Positions 6,132 to 50,983 of a stretch of DNA of 64,000 nucleotides are shown piece after piece. The stretch's first letter is position 1. Each line of letters starts with the position of its first letter. The translations under genes were made by a program, and so were the position numbers. Below the pieces are notes generated by a model. It had not been told where the DNA came from. It worked only from the letters and a program-made list of their open reading frames with translations, and did not search any database. The DNA is taken from NCBI GenBank assembly GCA_964402995.1, contig CAYOEA010000009.1, forward strand, positions 4,974 through 68,973. Reading direction: 5' to 3'. The stretch comes from an uncultured Methanosarcinales archaeon (lineage in GTDB: Archaea; Nanobdellota; Nanobdellia; Woesearchaeales; GCA-2686295).

Positions 6132-6980
6132 TTAGCTAAAAAAGCGTTCAACATTAGAAAATCTTATTTTTACGTAATCTTTTGCTAAAAGTCCGCTATT
6201 TTTTAGAGTCTCTAAAGCCCCCATTACATGCGTACTTCCTTTTGGTATTCTAAACCCTGCGCTTCGACTTAATTCATCTAATTGTTTTAATCCTTCTGCA
6301 CGTGCTATTATTGAGGCCGCTGCAACTTCAACATAACTACTCTCTGCTTTTGTTTCAGCTATATCTCCAACTCTACATCCTGGGTATAAGTCAACTACGT
6401 GAATTGAAATCTCAGTTTTCAACTTTACATTTACTTGTCTGTGAAGCTTATCCAATAGTCGAGTCACATTATCCACTTTTGTTAGCTCATTATACTCATA
6501 AGGCTTTAAGGAAACTACATAATAATTATTCGGGAAAGTTTTAACAAGACGCTGCGCAAGTATCATAATTGATGCATCTTCAAAAGTTTTTGAATCACCA
6601 ACGCCCATATTTTCGAGCTGCTCCCTTTCAGAACTGTTTGCTCTAAATCCTGCGACGACTATTCCTCCAAATGTATCTCCTTTTAGTGTTTCATCGCTTC
6701 CAACTATTTCTTCTGCAAGTGGTTCAAGTCTTGTTTGCTCATCTGCCGATTTAGTAAATTTAGAATTAGAAGTGGATTTTGAAACTTTTTGTTTTGCTTC
6801 TAATCCAAGAAATATCCTAACATCATTTGCAATCTCTGATTTCCCTTGAACCAATATTTTTCCTGTTTGATATAGAATTACGGTACATGGTCCTTGCATT
6901 CTTGCAATTTCATATTGTTTTGGACTTACAAAATTAAAGCCTTTAGCTTCTAATTTCTTTAGATTATCAATGTCTACCAA
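6132..6980 (-). CDS. rnhC: Ribonuclease HIII
   Basis: N-terminal TBP-like segment (TVILYQTGKILVQG), GSDE..KGD motif, VAAASIIAR; TTG start with AGGTGA Shine-Dalgarno inside the rnhB 3' end. Confidence 0.85.
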   Translation of the reverse strand: MVDIDNLKKLEAKGFNFVSPKQYEIARMQGPCTVILYQTGKILVQGKSEIANDVRIFLGLEAKQKVSKSTSNSKFTKSADEQTRLEPLAEEIVGSDETLKGDTFGGIVVAGFRANSSEREQLENMGVGDSKTFEDASIMILAQRLVKTFPNNYYVVSLKPYEYNELTKVDNVTRLLDKLHRQVNVKLKTEISIHVVDLYPGCRVGDIAETKAESSYVEVAAASIIARAEGLKQLDELSRSAGFRIPKGSTHVMGALETLKNSGLLAKDYVKIRFSNVERFFS

Positions 6981-6983
6981 TTT

Positions 6984-7640
6984 TTAAAACTCACCTAAAC
7001 GTTTCTGAGCAGCTTCTTTTTTCTTATTCTGCCAAGTCTCCCATGATTTTCTAAAATATTTTGAGAATTCAGTTTTATTCCAATATTTAGCTACAAATTT
7101 TTGAGTTATTGGATCTGATGCGTATCCTGAGCCAACTTCTTTTTTAATTGCTTTACGCATTTTCTCCATTTCTCTATCTCGAATAACTTTTGCAATTATA
7201 CTTGCAGCACCAACTATTAAATAATTTAAATCAGCTTTATGTTCTACTATTATTTCAGTCTTTTTTCGACCAAGTCTTTTCTTAATATAATCAGAATAAC
7301 TCTTCAAATTTCTACTTGGACAATCAAGTATTGCCTTATCAGGTTTTGCGGTCTTTACAAGCGCAGCTGTAGTTCTAGCTTCTATCCAATTCAAATTATC
7401 GGTCTTTGAATTTAATGCATCATCAACTTCACCAGGCGTCACAATTACATAATCAACTTTACATAATTCTTTAACTATAGGAAATAATTCTTCTCGCTTT
7501 TTCTTAGAAAGTAACTTAGAATCTTTTACACCTATTGCATGTAGTTTAAATTCATCTTCTTTTTTGATGCTTGCAATAGCCATTACTAATGGACCTAAAA
7601 CAGGTCCTCTGCCAGCTTCATCTACTCCTGCAATAATCAT
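6984..7640 (-). CDS. rnhB: Ribonuclease HII
   Basis: GVDEAGRGPVLGP, DSK, EHKAD, AASIIAKV.RD, GSGY.SDP. Confidence 0.97.
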   Translation of the reverse strand: MIIAGVDEAGRGPVLGPLVMAIASIKKEDEFKLHAIGVKDSKLLSKKKREELFPIVKELCKVDYVIVTPGEVDDALNSKTDNLNWIEARTTAALVKTAKPDKAILDCPSRNLKSYSDYIKKRLGRKKTEIIVEHKADLNYLIVGAASIIAKVIRDREMEKMRKAIKKEVGSGYASDPITQKFVAKYWNKTEFSKYFRKSWETWQNKKKEAAQKRLGEF

Positions 7641-7720: not shown

Positions 7721-8743
7721 CTACTTCCCTATCATATCAATAAGTTCTTCTTCACGCATTTCTAAACCTTTCTGATATAAATCATTCACAGTTGTACTCA
7801 TAAAATTTAATGCTTTTCCTTGCATATCCGAGAAAAAAATCGAACCTGAATTAATAGCCACGTTTGAAGAGGGATTCTTACCTGAAATAGAAGTCCAATC
7901 AGAACTTTCAGTGTATAAATTTCCAATTTGAAACTCATCTTTATTTGAATCTCCAATAACTCCACTGAAATCAGCATCAGTTATTTTTATTTGACGATCA
8001 TCAGCAATATTAAAAACTATATTATTCTTTTCTTGATCTTGATATAAATCATTGCCTAAGAATAATTCATCAGAAATTTGCGCATTTAAATCATCATAAT
8101 AGTTATCAAAATGATCAGATATTTTATTCAAAACTTCTTGATATTCCGCATTTTTTGATTGTAATTTCTCTTCAACAGCTTGCCAAACTTTAGGACTTGC
8201 AGTTTCTTGGAAAATTTCCACATATTCTCCACCATAATATCCATCATATCCTGTTTTATTATAAGTAGCATTAGTTATAGTTTCTCCTGTATAACTACCT
8301 TCACCCATCCCTATCCCTTCTGAATAAGAATCCCCAAGATCAACGATTGTAGAATCAATTCCAAAATCCTCAAATCTTTTCCATAACTGATTATCTAAAG
8401 AATCATTAGGGTTAAAAATCAAAATACTCAATTTTTTTGTACCATCAGGATAATAAGTTTCAGATAATCTATATTTCAAACTACTTTCGCCAATAACTAA
8501 ATCAAGAGAAAAATTCTTTGGTTCTAGTGGTTCAATTACAGGTTCAACAACTTCAAATTCAACATCTTCTACAACATCTGCAATTGTATCAATTGTTTCT
8601 TCTACAACTTGTTCTTGTCGATGAACTTTATTTTCAAGATTTGAGTGTCTTGACCCGCTATTTGAGCATGATGAGAAAACTGCAGTTGCAAGCAATGTTG
8701 TTGCTAACAATCCAATATATAATCCTTTTTTCATTTGTTTCAC
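7721..8743 (-). CDS. Hypothetical acidic lipoprotein
   Basis: 340-aa ORF with basic N-terminus, hydrophobic stretch and lipobox-like VFSSC; no recognisable domain. Confidence 0.6.
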   Translation of the reverse strand: MKQMKKGLYIGLLATTLLATAVFSSCSNSGSRHSNLENKVHRQEQVVEETIDTIADVVEDVEFEVVEPVIEPLEPKNFSLDLVIGESSLKYRLSETYYPDGTKKLSILIFNPNDSLDNQLWKRFEDFGIDSTIVDLGDSYSEGIGMGEGSYTGETITNATYNKTGYDGYYGGEYVEIFQETASPKVWQAVEEKLQSKNAEYQEVLNKISDHFDNYYDDLNAQISDELFLGNDLYQDQEKNNIVFNIADDRQIKITDADFSGVIGDSNKDEFQIGNLYTESSDWTSISGKNPSSNVAINSGSIFFSDMQGKALNFMSTTVNDLYQKGLEMREEELIDMIGK

Positions 8744-8876
8744 CTATTTTTGTTAAATTTTATGTTTGTTACTAGTTAGTAACTAACGAATAGGCTTAAT
8801 ATCTTTTTACTATTAATGATATGAAAGATATGTTTTTTAGGAAATATTTAAATAAAACAAAACAATACAAAGTAAC

Positions 8877-15508: not shown

Positions 15509-15525
15509 CTATGCCGCGGTCGCAT
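15509..15525 (+). repeat. Upstream duplicate of the tRNA-Ser 5' end
   Basis: CTATGCCGCGGTCGCAT identical to 15579-15595. Confidence 0.85.
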
Positions 15526-15582
15526 TAGTCAAAAATTAACTAATAATTTTTGGAAATTCGACCGAGACAAAGAAAAAACTAT

Positions 15583-15705
15583 GCCGCGGTCGCATAGCCT
15601 GGTATTGCGCAGGATTGCTATGTACAATTGTACGTATGAAAACCTACAATATCTCGCAGAGATCCTGTTCCTTTGGAATCATGGGTTCAAATCCCATTCG
15701 CGGCG
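15583..15705 (+). tRNA. tRNA-Ser(GCT) with a 41-nt intron at 37/38 (15621-15661)
   Basis: GCCGCGG/TCGCGGC acceptor stem, G73, CAGGA/TCCTG anticodon stem, long variable arm; BHB central helix TTGC/GCAG with TA|T and AG|A bulges (outer helix relaxed). Confidence 0.94.
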
Positions 15706-15745
15706 CCTTTTTTATTTCTAAAAAAGTCTTCTTAAAGATTTGAAC

Positions 15746-15836
15746 GGGTTCAAACACTCAAAAACAAAGTTTTTGGTGTGACCAAAAATCCCAAATTTTT
15801 GTGCATCCCATTCGCGGCGCCTTTTTTATTTCTAAA
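15746..15836 (+). pseudogene. Duplicated tRNA-Ser 3' fragment interrupted in the T-loop by a 51-nt palindromic element
   Basis: GGGTTCAAA (15746-15754) + insert 15755-15805 + TCCCATTCGCGGCGCCTTTTTTATTTCTAAA; 15805-15836 is identical to 15691-15722. Confidence 0.75.
15755..15805. repeat. Double-hairpin palindromic element, copy A
   Basis: CACTC-AAAAAC/GTTTTT-GGTGTGACC-AAAAAT/ATTTTT-GTGCA. Confidence 0.75.
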
Positions 15837-15889: not shown

Positions 15890-15913
15890 CATTCGCGACA
15901 CTTTTTTATTTCT
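15890..15913 (+). repeat. Third, degenerate copy of the tRNA-Ser 3' end
   Basis: CATTCGCGACACTTTTTTATTTCT versus CATTCGCGGCGCCTTTTTTATTTCT. Confidence 0.65.
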
Positions 15914-19304: not shown

Positions 19305-19724
19305 ATGGTCATACTATTCGATCAATTCAATCTTCCAGACAGCATTTACGAAATTATATTTGCTACATCACAACAAGTTATGGTTGCAAAGCTTCTTGTT
19401 GAACAGATGAAATTAAAAGAAGGTGAAATAGGAAAAACAGAAATGTCCATGTTTGCAACAGCACTTCATGATGGAACAATCTTAGAAGCTGAAAGTGAAA
19501 GCCAATTCGTAGGTAAAACTAAAGTCAAACTATCATATAACAAAAGACAATTTTACGATAGAATCCTAACTCCTATGAAAACAATGGGATTAATCGATTA
19601 CGATTTATACAAGAAAACTTACAAATTAAGCGAAAAATTCAACAAAAACATGATGAGAATCGGATTAACTTGGTTACAAGAACTTCGAAAACCACCAAGA
19701 CCATTCGTACTAAAAACAAAATGA
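19305..19724 (+). CDS. Hypothetical protein, possible winged-helix DNA-binding
   Basis: 139-aa ORF; C-terminal helix then GLIDYD...YKL resembles a wing. Confidence 0.6.
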   Translation: MVILFDQFNLPDSIYEIIFATSQQVMVAKLLVEQMKLKEGEIGKTEMSMFATALHDGTILEAESESQFVGKTKVKLSYNKRQFYDRILTPMKTMGLIDYDLYKKTYKLSEKFNKNMMRIGLTWLQELRKPPRPFVLKTK

Positions 19725-19742: not shown

Positions 19743-19797
19743 GAGCTCCCTACAGCCTCTTCTCTAACCACCCTCCCCTCAATTCTGTTGGGAGCTC
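19743..19797. other. GC-rich stem-loop with a polypyrimidine loop
   Basis: GAGCTCCC-T-ACAG / CTGT-T-GGGAGCTC stem enclosing a 29-nt C/T-rich loop. Confidence 0.5.
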
Positions 19798-19929
19798 AAA
19801 ACCCCTTTTTTAACTGGCGATAAACAAACAACAAACACAACAAATTAATTCTCAAAATTAAATTAAAGAAAGTATTCTTAAAAAAATTAGAAAAGAATTA
19901 TAAATAGGTCAAATAATTTATTAATTAAA

Positions 19930-22130: not shown

Positions 22131-24617
22131 CTAACCATTAATTTTATATCTTCCATGTTTTTTTAAAATTTTATCAGGTACTGTAAAATTAAACATATTC
22201 CAACAATTCAATAATTCTTCAGGATTGCCTATTTCATGTAACTTTATACTAGGAATTAATCTATCATAAGCTTTGTAAAGATTTAGAGGTCTACCACCAT
22301 TTAAGCTCATATTATTCAATAACATTCCTAAAGCACGACTTGTTTCAGCAAGGGATATATTTCCGGGAATAATTCCTAAAAATGCTTCTTGATTATTATC
22401 AAGTCTTCTAAATCCTTTTTGCGAATTCATTATATGATATATTCTTTCTGAATCAAAATATGCGAGTGATTTTAAATATTTATTTTCAGTAAATTCATAA
22501 GTCAAAACTCTATTATTATTTCCCTTATCAATATAAATTCCTAACATTTCATTTACAGATTTATCATAAAATTCAGACAGAACAATGATAGATGAAACAA
22601 TTTTGTTAGCATGAATTATTCTTGGTTCCAATCCTCCAAATGAATTAGTATGATAAGCTCCTTTTTTAGATGGATTTGAAGTTATTGGTGAGACTTTCGG
22701 ATGAAGATGATTAACTATTGATTTATCTTCACTTATCATAGTTGACGAATTATCTTGATTAAGTTTTGCTTTCATTTCTTTTTTCGAGAAAACTTTCACC
22801 CCAAAAGACTCTAAATATTTGTCATTTGTTACTCTCGTAACTTTTGGTTTTAAACCTGCAAAATGATCATTTATTGTTGAAACTATATTAACAAATCTTG
22901 AATTAGAATATATAGATAAAGAATTAAGTCCTTTTGACAATTTTAGAACTTCAGCTGAGAAATTTATTGGTTCTAAAAGTAGAAAATTCTCATCATTAAA
23001 ATCAATTCGATTAAATTCTCCATTAACATTTTCTTCTATTGAGAAAATTTTTGTTTTTTCAAAATATTTTTTATGAGTTCCTTTATAATGTATTTTTAGT
23101 TTTCCAGCCTGATCTTTTTGTATAACTAATAAACCGTTTTGTAAATTTTTTGAGGTGGCAGAACTTTGAAAACTAACTACTACTTCATCACTAGTTGCTA
23201 AAGGATATTTTATCCAATCATATTCAAGCCCTGTTTCTTGAACTAATAATTCAATTGTATTATCAATTAATTCATGATCTATTTCAGTATTAAAAATAAA
23301 AGGTAAACAATTTATCTTCTGTAATTGTTTATTTACAAACGAATAATCTTTTAATCCGAAAAAACCTAAAGTTCTTTCCCTGGTTGAAGCTACAGCTTTA
23401 GAAATAGAAGTTTCATTTAAATAATCATAAATGATTTCATGCAGAGGAAACATTCTTGGAATATTATCTGCAAGCATTCTAATTGTAATGGGAATAGAGA
23501 TAGGTTTCTCAACAGACATATTTTCTATTGGACTAATACCATTGAATAAAATATCATTTTGATCAAATCTTACTAGAACATCATTTTTATATGTACTTGA
23601 TAAAATTACTTGTTCTACGCCTACTTTATCTTTATATTCACCTTTATAACTCTGTTCAATTCTTAATCCATTTGAATCTAAAGACTTGAAAGCTAAAACT
23701 CCAACTAATTTATTTTTTGGTCCTCTTTTAGAATTAATATTATCATTTCTAGATTTAAAAAATTTTGCAACACCAGATTGATACCCTGAAGAAAAATACT
23801 TAATAGTATCAAATGCTAATTCTGATTCAGTTATGAATTTTGTTATTACTTCTTTAACTTTATCAACATTTACAGTAATATCAGTTATCTCAAAATCTAA
23901 TGATTTATCTTTTAACATGATTTGATCCAGCTTACGACTTTGTTTATTAGCATATGAAAAATCTATGGTTTCTTTCTTTTGTTGTAATTCTGCAGCGCCT
24001 TTTTCATAAAGTTCTAAAAAATCAATTTTTTTTGTTGAGGTATTCTCCTTAGCTCCAACTATTTCATCTGAAATTGATGAACCTTCATTATCTGAAGCAA
24101 ATTCAAAATTCATTTTTGAAGGTATAATTCTTGAACGATTTCTCTTTGTATTCTTTACAGTTTGTGCAACATCTTTTACAGTTAAGTTTTCTGGTTCATC
24201 AGATTCTTCATTTTGTATAGACTTTAATGGTTTAAAATATGCTCCAAGACCTAAACTTTTTGATTCAGATTCATTTAATTTAACATATTTCGTATTTGAT
24301 TCATCCCACATAAAATTAAATAGTTTCTTTTCTGGTTGGTTTTCTTTTACTAATCCTCTGTAAGAAATAAATTCTAAGAAATCAAATTCATCAAACTTCA
24401 AAACAGAAGTTCCAATTACATTATTATTTGCAACGAAGGTTAAATAATATATTTGATCTTCAATTTCGGGAGAATATAATTTAGATTTAATATCTTCATT
24501 AAAGCCAATACTATTTTTTAATTCATTTATTACTAAGACCAATTCATCAATTTTTGGATGAAATGATGGTTCAAGATGACTATTATTCAATCTTGTTATA
24601 AGGTCTTTACTTTGCAT
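22131..24617 (-). CDS. Large hypothetical protein
   Basis: 828-aa open frame just downstream of tRNA-Arg; no motif recognised. Confidence 0.65.
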   Translation of the reverse strand: MQSKDLITRLNNSHLEPSFHPKIDELVLVINELKNSIGFNEDIKSKLYSPEIEDQIYYLTFVANNNVIGTSVLKFDEFDFLEFISYRGLVKENQPEKKLFNFMWDESNTKYVKLNESESKSLGLGAYFKPLKSIQNEESDEPENLTVKDVAQTVKNTKRNRSRIIPSKMNFEFASDNEGSSISDEIVGAKENTSTKKIDFLELYEKGAAELQQKKETIDFSYANKQSRKLDQIMLKDKSLDFEITDITVNVDKVKEVITKFITESELAFDTIKYFSSGYQSGVAKFFKSRNDNINSKRGPKNKLVGVLAFKSLDSNGLRIEQSYKGEYKDKVGVEQVILSSTYKNDVLVRFDQNDILFNGISPIENMSVEKPISIPITIRMLADNIPRMFPLHEIIYDYLNETSISKAVASTRERTLGFFGLKDYSFVNKQLQKINCLPFIFNTEIDHELIDNTIELLVQETGLEYDWIKYPLATSDEVVVSFQSSATSKNLQNGLLVIQKDQAGKLKIHYKGTHKKYFEKTKIFSIEENVNGEFNRIDFNDENFLLLEPINFSAEVLKLSKGLNSLSIYSNSRFVNIVSTINDHFAGLKPKVTRVTNDKYLESFGVKVFSKKEMKAKLNQDNSSTMISEDKSIVNHLHPKVSPITSNPSKKGAYHTNSFGGLEPRIIHANKIVSSIIVLSEFYDKSVNEMLGIYIDKGNNNRVLTYEFTENKYLKSLAYFDSERIYHIMNSQKGFRRLDNNQEAFLGIIPGNISLAETSRALGMLLNNMSLNGGRPLNLYKAYDRLIPSIKLHEIGNPEELLNCWNMFNFTVPDKILKKHGRYKING

Positions 24618-24685
24618 TTTAACTTTCTTAAACTAAAGAGGTATTTAAACCTTACCTAACAATTACTATTTGAGAGTAGAAAATA

Positions 24686-24918
24686 CGAACCCAGGGGGAC
24701 TTTCATAACGAATCCACATAGTTTTCCACTAAGTAAGATTTCGCAAAGCGAATATCTTACCGACGCTAGCCGTCAACGAGTATTCATTGTTTTGAACCCC
24801 CGATCTACAGCTTACTTCTAAAATAGCAAAATAAATGCTAAATTTATAGGAGGCTGTCGCCTTATTTGCCCAAAAAAACTGCTAAAACAGTTTTGTTACC
24901 AGACTAGGCTATAGGTTC
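24686..24918 (-). tRNA. tRNA-Arg(CCT) with three introns: 24866-24898 (19/20), 24813-24846 (37/38), 24700-24790 (59/60)
   Basis: Exons join to GAACCTA TA GCCT AGTCTGGATA AGGC G ACAGC CTCCTAA GCTGT AGATC GGGGG TTCAAAT CCCCC TGGGTTC G (75 nt), with A20 and G73; BHB-like motif at each junction. Confidence 0.9.
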
Positions 24919-24998
24919 GCACAAAGAAATAGATTAGCATCTTCTTTTTAAACTTTTTTTAAACAAAGATTTATATAGCTAAAATAAATATTTATCAC

Positions 24999-50452: not shown

Positions 50453-50556
50453 GAAGCATTTTCAGAACAATAAAGCACACATTTGTGCTTAATAATTTAT
50501 TTTAACTTATTTTTACAAAACGTTTATAAATAAAAAGTTCCTTCCTAAAGGAACAA

Positions 50557-50704
50557 GTGTGAACGGGTCCTTTTTCGAACTGAACGTAAAGTTCTTTGTT
50601 ATGAGACTAAGACACCCTCACGCGTGTCAGCCCGACACAGAGAGTACCTATTCGAGCCACGACGATTGTCAATGCGATGAAACTGGGAGTTAGTGACTCG
50701 GGCA
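50557..50704 (+). ncRNA. Candidate structured ncRNA of unknown family
   Basis: GC-rich island; TTTATAAA box at 50523-50530; helices GTGTGA(AC)GGGT/ACCCTCACGC and GCCCGA/TCGGGC; T-run downstream. Confidence 0.45.
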
Positions 50705-50983
50705 TTATTAATTTTTAATCATAAAATCACAAATTCACAGAACAAGTTCATTACTATCATAATCATTCATAATCATTTACAGCAGTAAACAATAGTAAAC
50801 TTGTTCTTAGCATAAACTTCAAATCAAAAAAAGTATGATGTATTAGACCTAATTTATAGTGTCTTATCGAATTGTGATTCTTGATTAACTTAACTAAAAA
50901 ATAAACTAAATTACGATTATTAAGAGGAACGAGAAACAAACAAAATTTTTTGTACCTCAAAATGTAATTTTGGAGGAAATAAA

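Follow-up and report, generated by a model that had tools for sequence, protein, structure and literature searches.

The 64,000-nucleotide stretch of DNA analysed here (GenBank assembly GCA_964402995.1, contig CAYOEA010000009.1, positions 4,974 to 68,973 of the forward strand; hereafter the window) contains what is very probably a functional tRNA-Arg(CCU) gene of a Woesearchaeota-like archaeon of the DPANN superphylum, interrupted by three bulge-helix-bulge (BHB) introns, one each in the D-loop (site 19/20), the anticodon loop (37/38) and the T-loop (59/60). The basis for this assignment is the gene structure, BHB geometry, orthology, covariation and promoter-box conservation; transcription, cleavage by the tRNA splicing endonuclease EndA, ligation and the type of EndA are extrapolated from established archaeal tRNA biology. 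The same three-intron architecture had been put forward in an original prediction made by reading the DNA letters, and it is supported by in-silico splicing, BHB geometry, synteny and covariation. The three-intron tRNA is an already known structure; in the Woesearchaeota-like group it is common, and barely described.

Gene structure and expression signals

The gene lies on the minus strand (24918-24686; all coordinates are window positions) and consists of exons of 20, 19, 22 and 14 nt separated by introns of 33, 34 and 91 nt, the coordinates and lengths of the original prediction proving exact to the base. Exon 1 (24899..24918, minus) carries the 5' strand of the acceptor stem, U8 and A9, the 5' strand of the D-stem and the D-loop through G18 G19, and is followed by intron 1 (24866..24898, minus) at site 19/20, with the inner helix AACAAAACUG/CAGUUUUUUU. 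Exon 2 (24847..24865, minus) supplies A20, U20a and A21, the 3' strand of the D-stem, G26, the 5' strand of the anticodon stem and C32 U33 C34 C35 U36 A37, and is followed by intron 2 (24813..24846, minus) at the canonical site 37/38. Exon 3 (24791..24812, minus) comprises A38, the 3' strand of the anticodon stem, the variable loop AGAUC, the 5' strand of the T-stem and U54 U55 C56 A57 A58 A59. It is separated by intron 3 (24700..24790, minus) at site 59/60 from exon 4 (24686..24699, minus), which provides U60, the 3' strands of the T-stem and acceptor stem, and the discriminator G73.

Removal of the introns gives the 75-mer GAACCTATAGCCTAGTCTGGATAAGGCGACAGCCTCCTAAGCTGTAGATCGGGGGTTCAAATCCCCCTGGGTTCG, which ARAGORN calls as tRNA-Arg(cct) with 21/21 stem pairs formed (acceptor 7 bp with one G.U, D 4 bp, anticodon 5 bp, T 5 bp). 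Together with the covariation among orthologues described below, this call bears out the predicted fully paired 75-nt cloverleaf. The spliced product has the anticodon loop CUCCUAA, the T-loop UUCAAAU and discriminator G, and its conserved tertiary bases are intact (U8, A14, G18 G19, A21, U33 and the T-loop UUCAAAU). The exons have a GC content of 55%, against ~30% for the genome.

Arginine identity requires C35 and U or G at position 36, and A20 in the D-loop is the main determinant for bacterial ArgRS. The window gene has the anticodon C34 C35 U36, and A20 directly after G18 G19. This A20 had been predicted to sit at the D-loop splice junction; exon 2 begins with it, and the base is conserved in 18/18 aligned orthologues.

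A box with the sequence TTTAAAAA (24945..24952, minus; positions -34 to -27 from the mature 5' end) occurs at the same upstream distance in nearly all orthologues, and is inferred to be an archaeal TATA-like promoter element. CCA is not encoded at the 3' end of the gene, and the T-rich tract UAUUUUCU (24678..24685, minus), immediately 3' of the discriminator base, is likely an archaeal oligo-T termination signal. In split or permuted tRNA genes, the pieces are found at separate loci or in permuted order, with complementarity between leader and trailer. An arrangement of this kind (Nanoarchaeum, Caldivirga or Thermofilum type) is ruled out here, as one strand carries the four exons in order within 233 nt, with a single promoter box.

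Bulge-helix-bulge geometry

The BHB rule applied here consists of a 4-bp central helix followed by a 3-nt bulge on both strands, with the cut after the second bulge nucleotide. The tested introns were derived from the cloverleaf; in a ranking for BHB geometry of the 19,375 start/end pairs that the precursor allows, intron 3 ranks 1, intron 1 ranks 23 and intron 2 ranks 72. All three junction pairs satisfy the BHB rule, with imperfections in introns 1 and 2. In intron 1, the central helix is GUCU/GGGC (4 pairs, of which 2 are G.U) with bulges GG|U and AA|A, and the outer helix is interrupted (A14-U20a, a bulged A21, then the D stem). In intron 2, the central helix is CUCC/GAAG (3/4 pairs, with a C34.A mismatch) and the bulges are UA|U and UA|A, the anticodon stem serving as the outer helix; the C34.A mismatch is also present in the 37/38 central helices of the orthologous loci L013, L029 and L031. 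In intron 3, the central helix is UUCA/UGAA (4 Watson-Crick pairs) and the bulges are AA|A and AG|U, forming a strict hBHBh' motif whose outer helix is the T stem and whose 7-bp inner helix, AAUGAAU/AUUCGUU, encloses three hairpins. When intron 3 is folded alone, the closing helix of the minimum free energy (MFE) structure is exactly this predicted 7-bp inner helix (z=-2.4). The central helices at 19/20, 37/38 and 59/60 named in the original prediction are thus confirmed by explicit geometry.

The central helix also covaries across species between its intronic and exon strands (GUCU/GGAC, GUCU/GGAU, GCCU/GGGC, UUCG/CGAA), the first three of these being the variants found at the 19/20 site in relatives. 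In each arm the outer helix is a native stem, while the central helix draws on the nucleotides at the start of the loop, such that the introns occupy equivalent positions in the three hairpins.

The 59/60 site is a catalogued non-canonical intron position (PMC4090602). Site 19/20 does not appear in the explicitly non-exhaustive list given in the available part of the same source (20/21, 22/23, ... 59/60, 'etc.'). Because the D-loop holds a 17a insertion, intron 1 follows nucleotide 20 in a linear count, and the 19/20 site corresponds to 20/21 in that count.

Host and genomic context

The window is part of the 74.7-kb ENA metagenome contig k141_364600. The surrounding genes (CDP-archaeol synthase, TruD, GatD/E and topoisomerase VI) are archaeal, the flanking LPG_synthase_TM protein shows up to 62% identity to proteins of metagenome-assembled genomes (MAGs) labelled Woesearchaeota, Nanoarchaeota or 'Nanobdellati', and the gene order ADK-TruD-[tRNA]-LPG_synthase_TM-CarS is conserved, which together point to a Woesearchaeota-like DPANN archaeon as the host. 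The closest species-level representative has ~60% identity in the LPG_synthase_TM protein. A probable DPANN origin had been proposed from the letters, and the match of flanking proteins and synteny to Woesearchaeota and Nanoarchaeota MAGs agrees with it.

In the window lineage only, TruD and the 3' end of the tRNA-Arg gene are separated by an open reading frame (ORF) of 828 aa (22131-24617, minus) that matches no Pfam or NCBIfam family. In L005 and L008, TruD directly adjoins the tRNA, and in L004 two ABC-transporter genes and an inverted tRNA are found. From these differing arrangements, the 3' flank of the tRNA-Arg gene looks like a rearrangement or insertion hotspot.

Orthologues, covariation and recurrence

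A tRNA-Arg(CCU) orthologue is found in the same intergenic position in ~20 Woesearchaeota/Nanoarchaeota species, with 0-3 introns. It is intronless in L010, L012, L018, L032 and L035. Single introns are found at 19/20 (L004, L005/L023, L011), at 15/16 (L017) or at 37/38 (L020, L029, L031), and pairs of introns at 19/20 and 37/38 (L013, L024), at 15/16 and 20a/21 (L015) or at 19/20 and 59/60 (L016, L019). The full set of 19/20, 37/38 and 59/60 is present in L021 as well as in the window gene. Counted by site, the 19/20 position is occupied in the relatives L004, L005/L023, L011, L013, L016, L019, L021 and L024, and the 59/60 position in L016, L019 and L021.

After in-silico splicing, 20/20 orthologues are called tRNA-Arg(cct) by ARAGORN. 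In an alignment of 18 spliced orthologues, 99.7% of the cells in cloverleaf pairs are paired and 13/21 pairs show compensatory change; 0/500 shuffles match the observed values, and the signal collapses when the pairing partners are slid by 1-3 columns. The spliced window tRNA is identical to the intronless L010 tRNA at 68/75 positions (91%). Of the seven differences, five fall in acceptor-stem pairs and preserve pairing, comprising two double changes from G-C to A-U (pairs 2-71 and 7-66, A-U in the window and G-C in L010) and one change from U-A to U.G, indicating continued selection on the spliced product.

The architecture also recurs in metagenomes. A scan for the junction between exon 3 and the T-loop intron returned 26 contigs, and a metagenome scan for the exact exon 1 sequence gave no match. 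The 17 metagenome genes curated (anticodon CCU or UCU) are all tRNA-Arg after splicing, all have a 59/60 intron, and seven of them have three introns. These seven combine 59/60 with 19/20 and 37/38 (L078, L081, L084, L087), with a D-loop intron and 37/38 (L082), with 19/20 and 29/30 (L067), or with 29/30 and 37/38 (L077). The three-intron genes in L021 and in these contigs make the window architecture a recurrent theme and no singular oddity. The rarity of such genes in DPANN genomes implied by the original prediction was therefore overstated, the same layout recurring in public MAGs and metagenomes.

Three further loci were observed in the course of this survey. L080 (~570-1100) carries tandem tRNA-Arg genes, UCU then CCU, each with its own 59/60 intron of ~45-52 nt. 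In L014 (~2169-2335, minus), the 5' exon of the syntenic tRNA-Arg gene was not located, which could reflect a first intron of great length or a split gene. In L025 (3946-3987), the tRNA-Arg gene is broken by an assembly gap (a run of N).

Intron relationships and possible mobility

In a neighbour-joining tree of the flanking protein, which as a species tree based on one protein is indicative only, the window groups with L004 (19/20 only) and L013 (19/20 and 37/38). The 59/60 intron is patchy on this tree, suggesting repeated gain and/or loss. The last 11 nt of intron 2, TTTTAGAAGTA, are identical to the end of the L013 37/38 intron (z=4.5, 1/500 shuffles). Intron 3 (91 nt) is homologous to the 81-nt T-loop intron of the tRNA-Arg(UCU) gene in L071 (Smith-Waterman z=12.4, 0/500 shuffles). 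Intron 3 contains a conserved 45-nt core, GUUGACGGCUAGCGUCGGUAAGAUAUUCGCUUUGCGAAAUCUUAC (24733..24777, minus), which consists of two hairpins; relative to L071, 17/17 pairs are kept, 4 of them with compensatory changes, although the shuffle control, based on two sequences only, is weak (27/500). A covariance model of the core, R1, gives 69.8 and 68.3 bits on its two founding sequences, which match by construction, and has one further, weak match in the T-loop intron of L077 (E=0.27).

No similarity was found among the three window introns, and outside the BHB nucleotides intron 1 showed none to the other 19/20 introns. An origin by intragenic duplication is therefore unsupported for the window gene. 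Such an origin is supported by sequence similarity for introns of L016 and L019, in each of which the D-loop and T-loop introns resemble one another, shuffled introns giving no matches. Furthermore, the D-loop (19/20) intron of L019 is homologous to the T-loop (59/60) intron of L078 (Smith-Waterman z=13, 0/500 shuffles). An intron family of the form CUUUUU..AAAAAG..GGGAAAA..GCGACAUGCG..CGCUUAGUCCC is found in the D-loop in one species and in the T-loop in another, and in both tRNA-Arg isoacceptors. The presence of one family at both D-loop and T-loop sites is evidence for the movement of BHB introns between sites in DPANN archaea, and suggests intron mobility in the relatives of the window lineage.

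A wider proposal, which we regard as possible but on balance doubtful, is that Woesearchaeota-type DPANN archaea harbour actively mobile BHB intron families that would insert at the structurally equivalent 'stem + 6 nt' position in a D-loop, anticodon loop or T-loop, for instance through a reversed endonuclease/ligase reaction followed by reverse transcription or recombination. In this proposal at least one family, including the 91-nt window intron, would be kept because its two-hairpin core has some role as an excised, possibly circular, RNA, and such genes would be systematically missed or mistyped in MAG annotation, distorting tRNA sets.

The intron of euryarchaeal pre-tRNA-Trp encodes a C/D box guide RNA, and is a precedent for a functional structured tRNA intron. 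C/D box sRNA introns of this type have a C box (RUGAUGA) and a D box (CUGA) near the intron ends, and a guide segment. By contrast, the three window introns have no C/D boxes and no Rfam match, and the core of intron 3 consists of two plain hairpins. A C/D box sRNA encoded in the window introns was thus rejected, with no Rfam C/D match on the tRNA strand, as was a C/D-box reading of the 91-nt intron 3 in particular, which lacks a D box; the motifs are likewise absent from the 34-nt intron 2. Motifs resembling a C box (UGAUGA) and a D box (CUGA) are found in a family of 58-72-nt 37/38 introns of tRNA-Arg(CCU) in L069, L077 (~8700-8800), L082, L029 and L031, together with a conserved GGAAGAGAGUUAGCUGAG segment. 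By analogy to pre-tRNA-Trp, this family suggests intron-encoded C/D box guide RNAs.

Alternative explanations

Several points weigh against a functional three-intron gene. MFE folding does not return the BHB motifs, whether applied to the entire precursor or to the single arms including their introns. This is no argument against the BHB motifs themselves, because their geometry was tested explicitly instead. The efficiency of cleavage is uncertain, owing to the C.A mismatch in intron 2 and to the two G.U pairs and interrupted outer helix in intron 1. No EndA or ligase gene was found on the 74.7-kb contig, and the splicing machinery is assumed. A second intact tRNA-Arg(CCU) gene may be present beyond the 74.7 kb examined, and transcription and splicing are predictions from sequence and analogy.

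These points leave most room, albeit little, for a decaying pseudogene, in which a former tRNA-Arg has suffered three insertions and AGG is decoded by an intact tRNA-Arg(CCU) or tRNA-Arg(UCU) elsewhere. The limited part of the genome examined (74.7 kb), the reliance on inferred expression and the imperfect central helix of intron 2 are compatible with such decay. However, the 21/21 stem pairs and conserved tertiary bases are intact, the lineage-specific acceptor-stem changes are compensatory (2-71 and 7-66), the insertions lie exactly at BHB-competent sites common to many species, the promoter box is conserved, and by synteny the gene corresponds to the intronless orthologue in relatives. A pseudogene is thus improbable. 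The window gene is probably the sole tRNA-Arg(CCU) copy of the genome, as judged from the 74.7-kb contig.

Somewhat less probable still is a real tRNA with at least one insert, in particular the 91-nt one, that is removed or used outside the EndA route, as a self-splicing intron, a mobile element or an embedded small RNA gene. The two-hairpin core of intron 3, with compensatory changes in a distant homologue, and the C/D-box-like motifs in 37/38 introns of tRNA-Arg in other species could be read in this way. Nonetheless, intron 3 has the best BHB motif of the three, and Rfam gives no group I/II, C/D or other family match. Self-splicing group I and II introns have a catalytic RNA core, and are typically >200 nt. 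At 33, 34 and 91 nt and with no Rfam match, the window introns were rejected as candidates of this kind, even the 91-nt one falling far below the size of a self-splicing intron. A function embedded in an insert would in any case supplement EndA splicing and not replace it.

An assembly artefact or chimera, in which the insertions stem from misjoined reads in an AT-rich metagenome, would be conceivable for a contig from a short-read metagenome assembly (as indicated by its k141 name), but is very remote. The assembly on which the original prediction depends is supported by the 381-nt intergenic region containing the tRNA-Arg gene, which is 100% identical in three assemblies from three different samples, and independent MAGs and metagenome contigs from other studies have introns at the same three sites. 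Finally, three free deletions within 233 nt allow many degrees of freedom, but a chance cloverleaf is refuted by the comparative data and has a negligible likelihood, given a spliced aligner score of 132 at the window locus against a background of 50-68 (9-kb loci), 91% identity to an intronless orthologue, intron boundaries that fall on top-ranked BHB geometry, and exons that form GC-rich islands.

Proposed splicing pathway

For the favoured functional three-intron gene, transcription from the TATA-type promoter would yield a precursor of ~233 nt plus a short leader and trailer, in which all three hairpin arms, lengthened by their introns, form BHB motifs. The native stem (D, anticodon or T) would form the outer helix, and the first four loop nucleotides would pair with the 3' end of the intron to form the 4-bp central helix, placing the cut sites in the two 3-nt bulges, after the second bulge nucleotide. 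EndA would cut all six sites, an RtcB-type ligase would join the four exons, and RNase P and a 3' nuclease would trim the ends, followed by addition of CCA. The introns would represent insertions that vary between lineages through gain, loss and, among the relatives, copying from one site to another.

EndA was not found by Pfam searches of ~50 window ORFs, by NCBIfam searches of the ORFs lacking a Pfam match, by phmmer searches with the M. jannaschii EndA sequence (validated against PDB 1a79) of six-frame ORFs from the contig and from ~750 kb of related loci, or at the two ends of the source contig. Published work suggests that the EndA of the window host is of the alpha4 type, carrying the DPANN 'L3' loop. 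The broad-specificity endonuclease that the original prediction had invoked is plausible, and is not compelled by the motifs. Departures from the strict motif consist of G.U pairs and one C.A mismatch, and the native stem is continuous as the outer helix in 2/3 of the arms (the D-stem one being interrupted). An enzyme strictly specific for BHB motifs might be sufficient, since two 3-nt bulges and a central helix of four positions are retained at each of the three introns.

Comparison with known disrupted tRNA genes

Three BHB introns are the most known for an archaeal tRNA, and have been documented mainly in Thermoproteales (PMC8450103, PMC4033280). Other archaea recorded as having multi-intron tRNAs are N. 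equitans, M. kandleri, Korarchaeum and ARMAN (PMC4033280, PMC8450103). The Thermoproteales genes (Pyrobaculum, Thermofilum, Caldivirga; Sugahara et al. 2007/2008, via PMC4033280, PMC4090602, PMC8450103) resemble the window gene in having up to three BHB introns per gene, located at 37/38 and at non-canonical sites that include 59/60 and the D-loop. Their introns are removed by the protein splicing endonuclease, as would be expected for the window gene. Related introns at different sites and in different tRNAs of Thermoproteales have been read as transposition (PMC4033280, PMC4090602), and are paralleled by those of the window's relatives. By contrast, the window host is a low-GC (30%), marine-type DPANN archaeon and no hyperthermophilic crenarchaeon, its expected EndA is not the crenarchaeal (alpha-beta)2 enzyme with the CSL/L1 loop, and all window introns lie at the equivalent spot of each hairpin loop, with the native stem outside.

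Disrupted tRNA genes known from the superphylum of the window host include the split tRNAs of N. equitans, the multi-intron tRNAs of ARMAN-1/2 with an epsilon2 EndA, and those of lineages with L3-loop alpha4 enzymes (PMC5829648). Kaneta et al. 2018 (PMC5829648) reported that several DPANN lineages have alpha4 EndAs bearing an 'L3' insertion at the C-terminus, accompanied by more disrupted tRNA genes. They applied tRNAscan-SE to a single MAG each of Woesearchaeota and Pacearchaeota, and expected DPANN genomes to hold further disrupted tRNA genes that had escaped detection. The association of greater tRNA disruption with a specificity loop on EndA in that study suggests, for the window gene, a link to an L3-loop alpha4 enzyme. 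Beyond what the available part of that account describes, the window group provides a three-intron Woesearchaeota tRNA, a series of orthologues with zero to three introns, and intron families. A limited literature search found no paper on three-intron tRNAs or intron families in Woesearchaeota.

The pre-tRNA-Glu(UUC) of M. kandleri (PMC5829648) likewise combines a D-loop intron near 20/21 with a 37/38 intron in one gene, and its cleavage by EndA was shown biochemically. The D-loop motif in M. kandleri is a relaxed HBh' motif that is poorly cut by its own EndA, whereas the window D-loop motif keeps both bulges. The M. kandleri gene has no T-loop intron, unlike the window gene.

Annotation by standard gene finders

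ARAGORN calls no tRNA on the unspliced window locus, and Rfam searches of the locus and the whole window, at gathering and permissive thresholds, did not find the tRNA-Arg gene. Sub-threshold Rfam matches to SAM-II, snoRNA and miRNA families were rejected as being on the wrong strand or due to chance. With intron detection on, ARAGORN mistypes unspliced tRNA-Arg(CCU) orthologues as Ser(gga) in L011, Gly(tcc) in L013, Pro(tgg) in L024 and Trp(cca) in L031, because real exons are absorbed into a false 'intron'. The expectation that standard tRNA finders may miss the gene thus holds as far as ARAGORN and the Rfam tRNA model are concerned, with mistyping of unspliced orthologues by ARAGORN as an additional fault.

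A tRNA-Ser(GCU) gene elsewhere in the window (15583-15707, plus) has a canonical 37/38 intron, and is found by Rfam and missed by ARAGORN; its syntenic orthologue in L008 (c63-145) is intronless. Partial copies of the ends of this gene surround it (15511-15526, 15747-15834, 15890-15913), comprising a copy of the 5' end, TATGCCGCGGTCGCAT, ~70 nt upstream, a copy of the 3' end and terminator, ATCCCATTCGCGGCGCCTTTTTTATTTCTA, ~115 nt downstream and preceded by the T-arm-like ACGGGTTCAAAC, and a third, degenerate 3' copy further downstream. These copies could be att-site remnants of integrated elements, or duplication debris.

Other features of the window

A GC-rich (~50%) island at 50555-50715 lies inside a 531-nt intergenic region of the 30% GC genome, and has no Rfam match and no significant structure on either strand (z=-1.7 and -1.5). 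At 19743-19798 (plus), in the gap after the ORF at 19305-19724, a GC-rich inverted repeat, GAGCTCCC...GGGAGCTC, precedes a T run, and may be a terminator-like hairpin or a small RNA. Two adjacent ORFs of the RNase HII family are found at 6132-6980 and 6984-7640 (minus), of which the upstream one (282 aa) is more divergent and has an N-terminal extension.

Significance

Because genes of this kind are missed or mistyped, DPANN genomes can seem to be without tRNA-Arg(CCU) or to contain spurious tRNAs, and such misannotation affects both completeness estimates and decoding inferences for DPANN MAGs. A functional intron RNA may reside in the conserved, structured core of the T-loop intron. A single precursor combines a site in the D-loop, an imperfect one at the canonical position and a strict one in the T-loop, natural substrates that can test a DPANN L3-loop alpha4 EndA. 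One syntenic gene with 0-3 introns across ~20 species, with intron families common to sites and isoacceptors, constitutes a 'snapshot' series for intron gain and loss of the kind called for in reviews (PMC4033280), drawn from a mesophilic-type, low-GC lineage far from the Thermoproteales.

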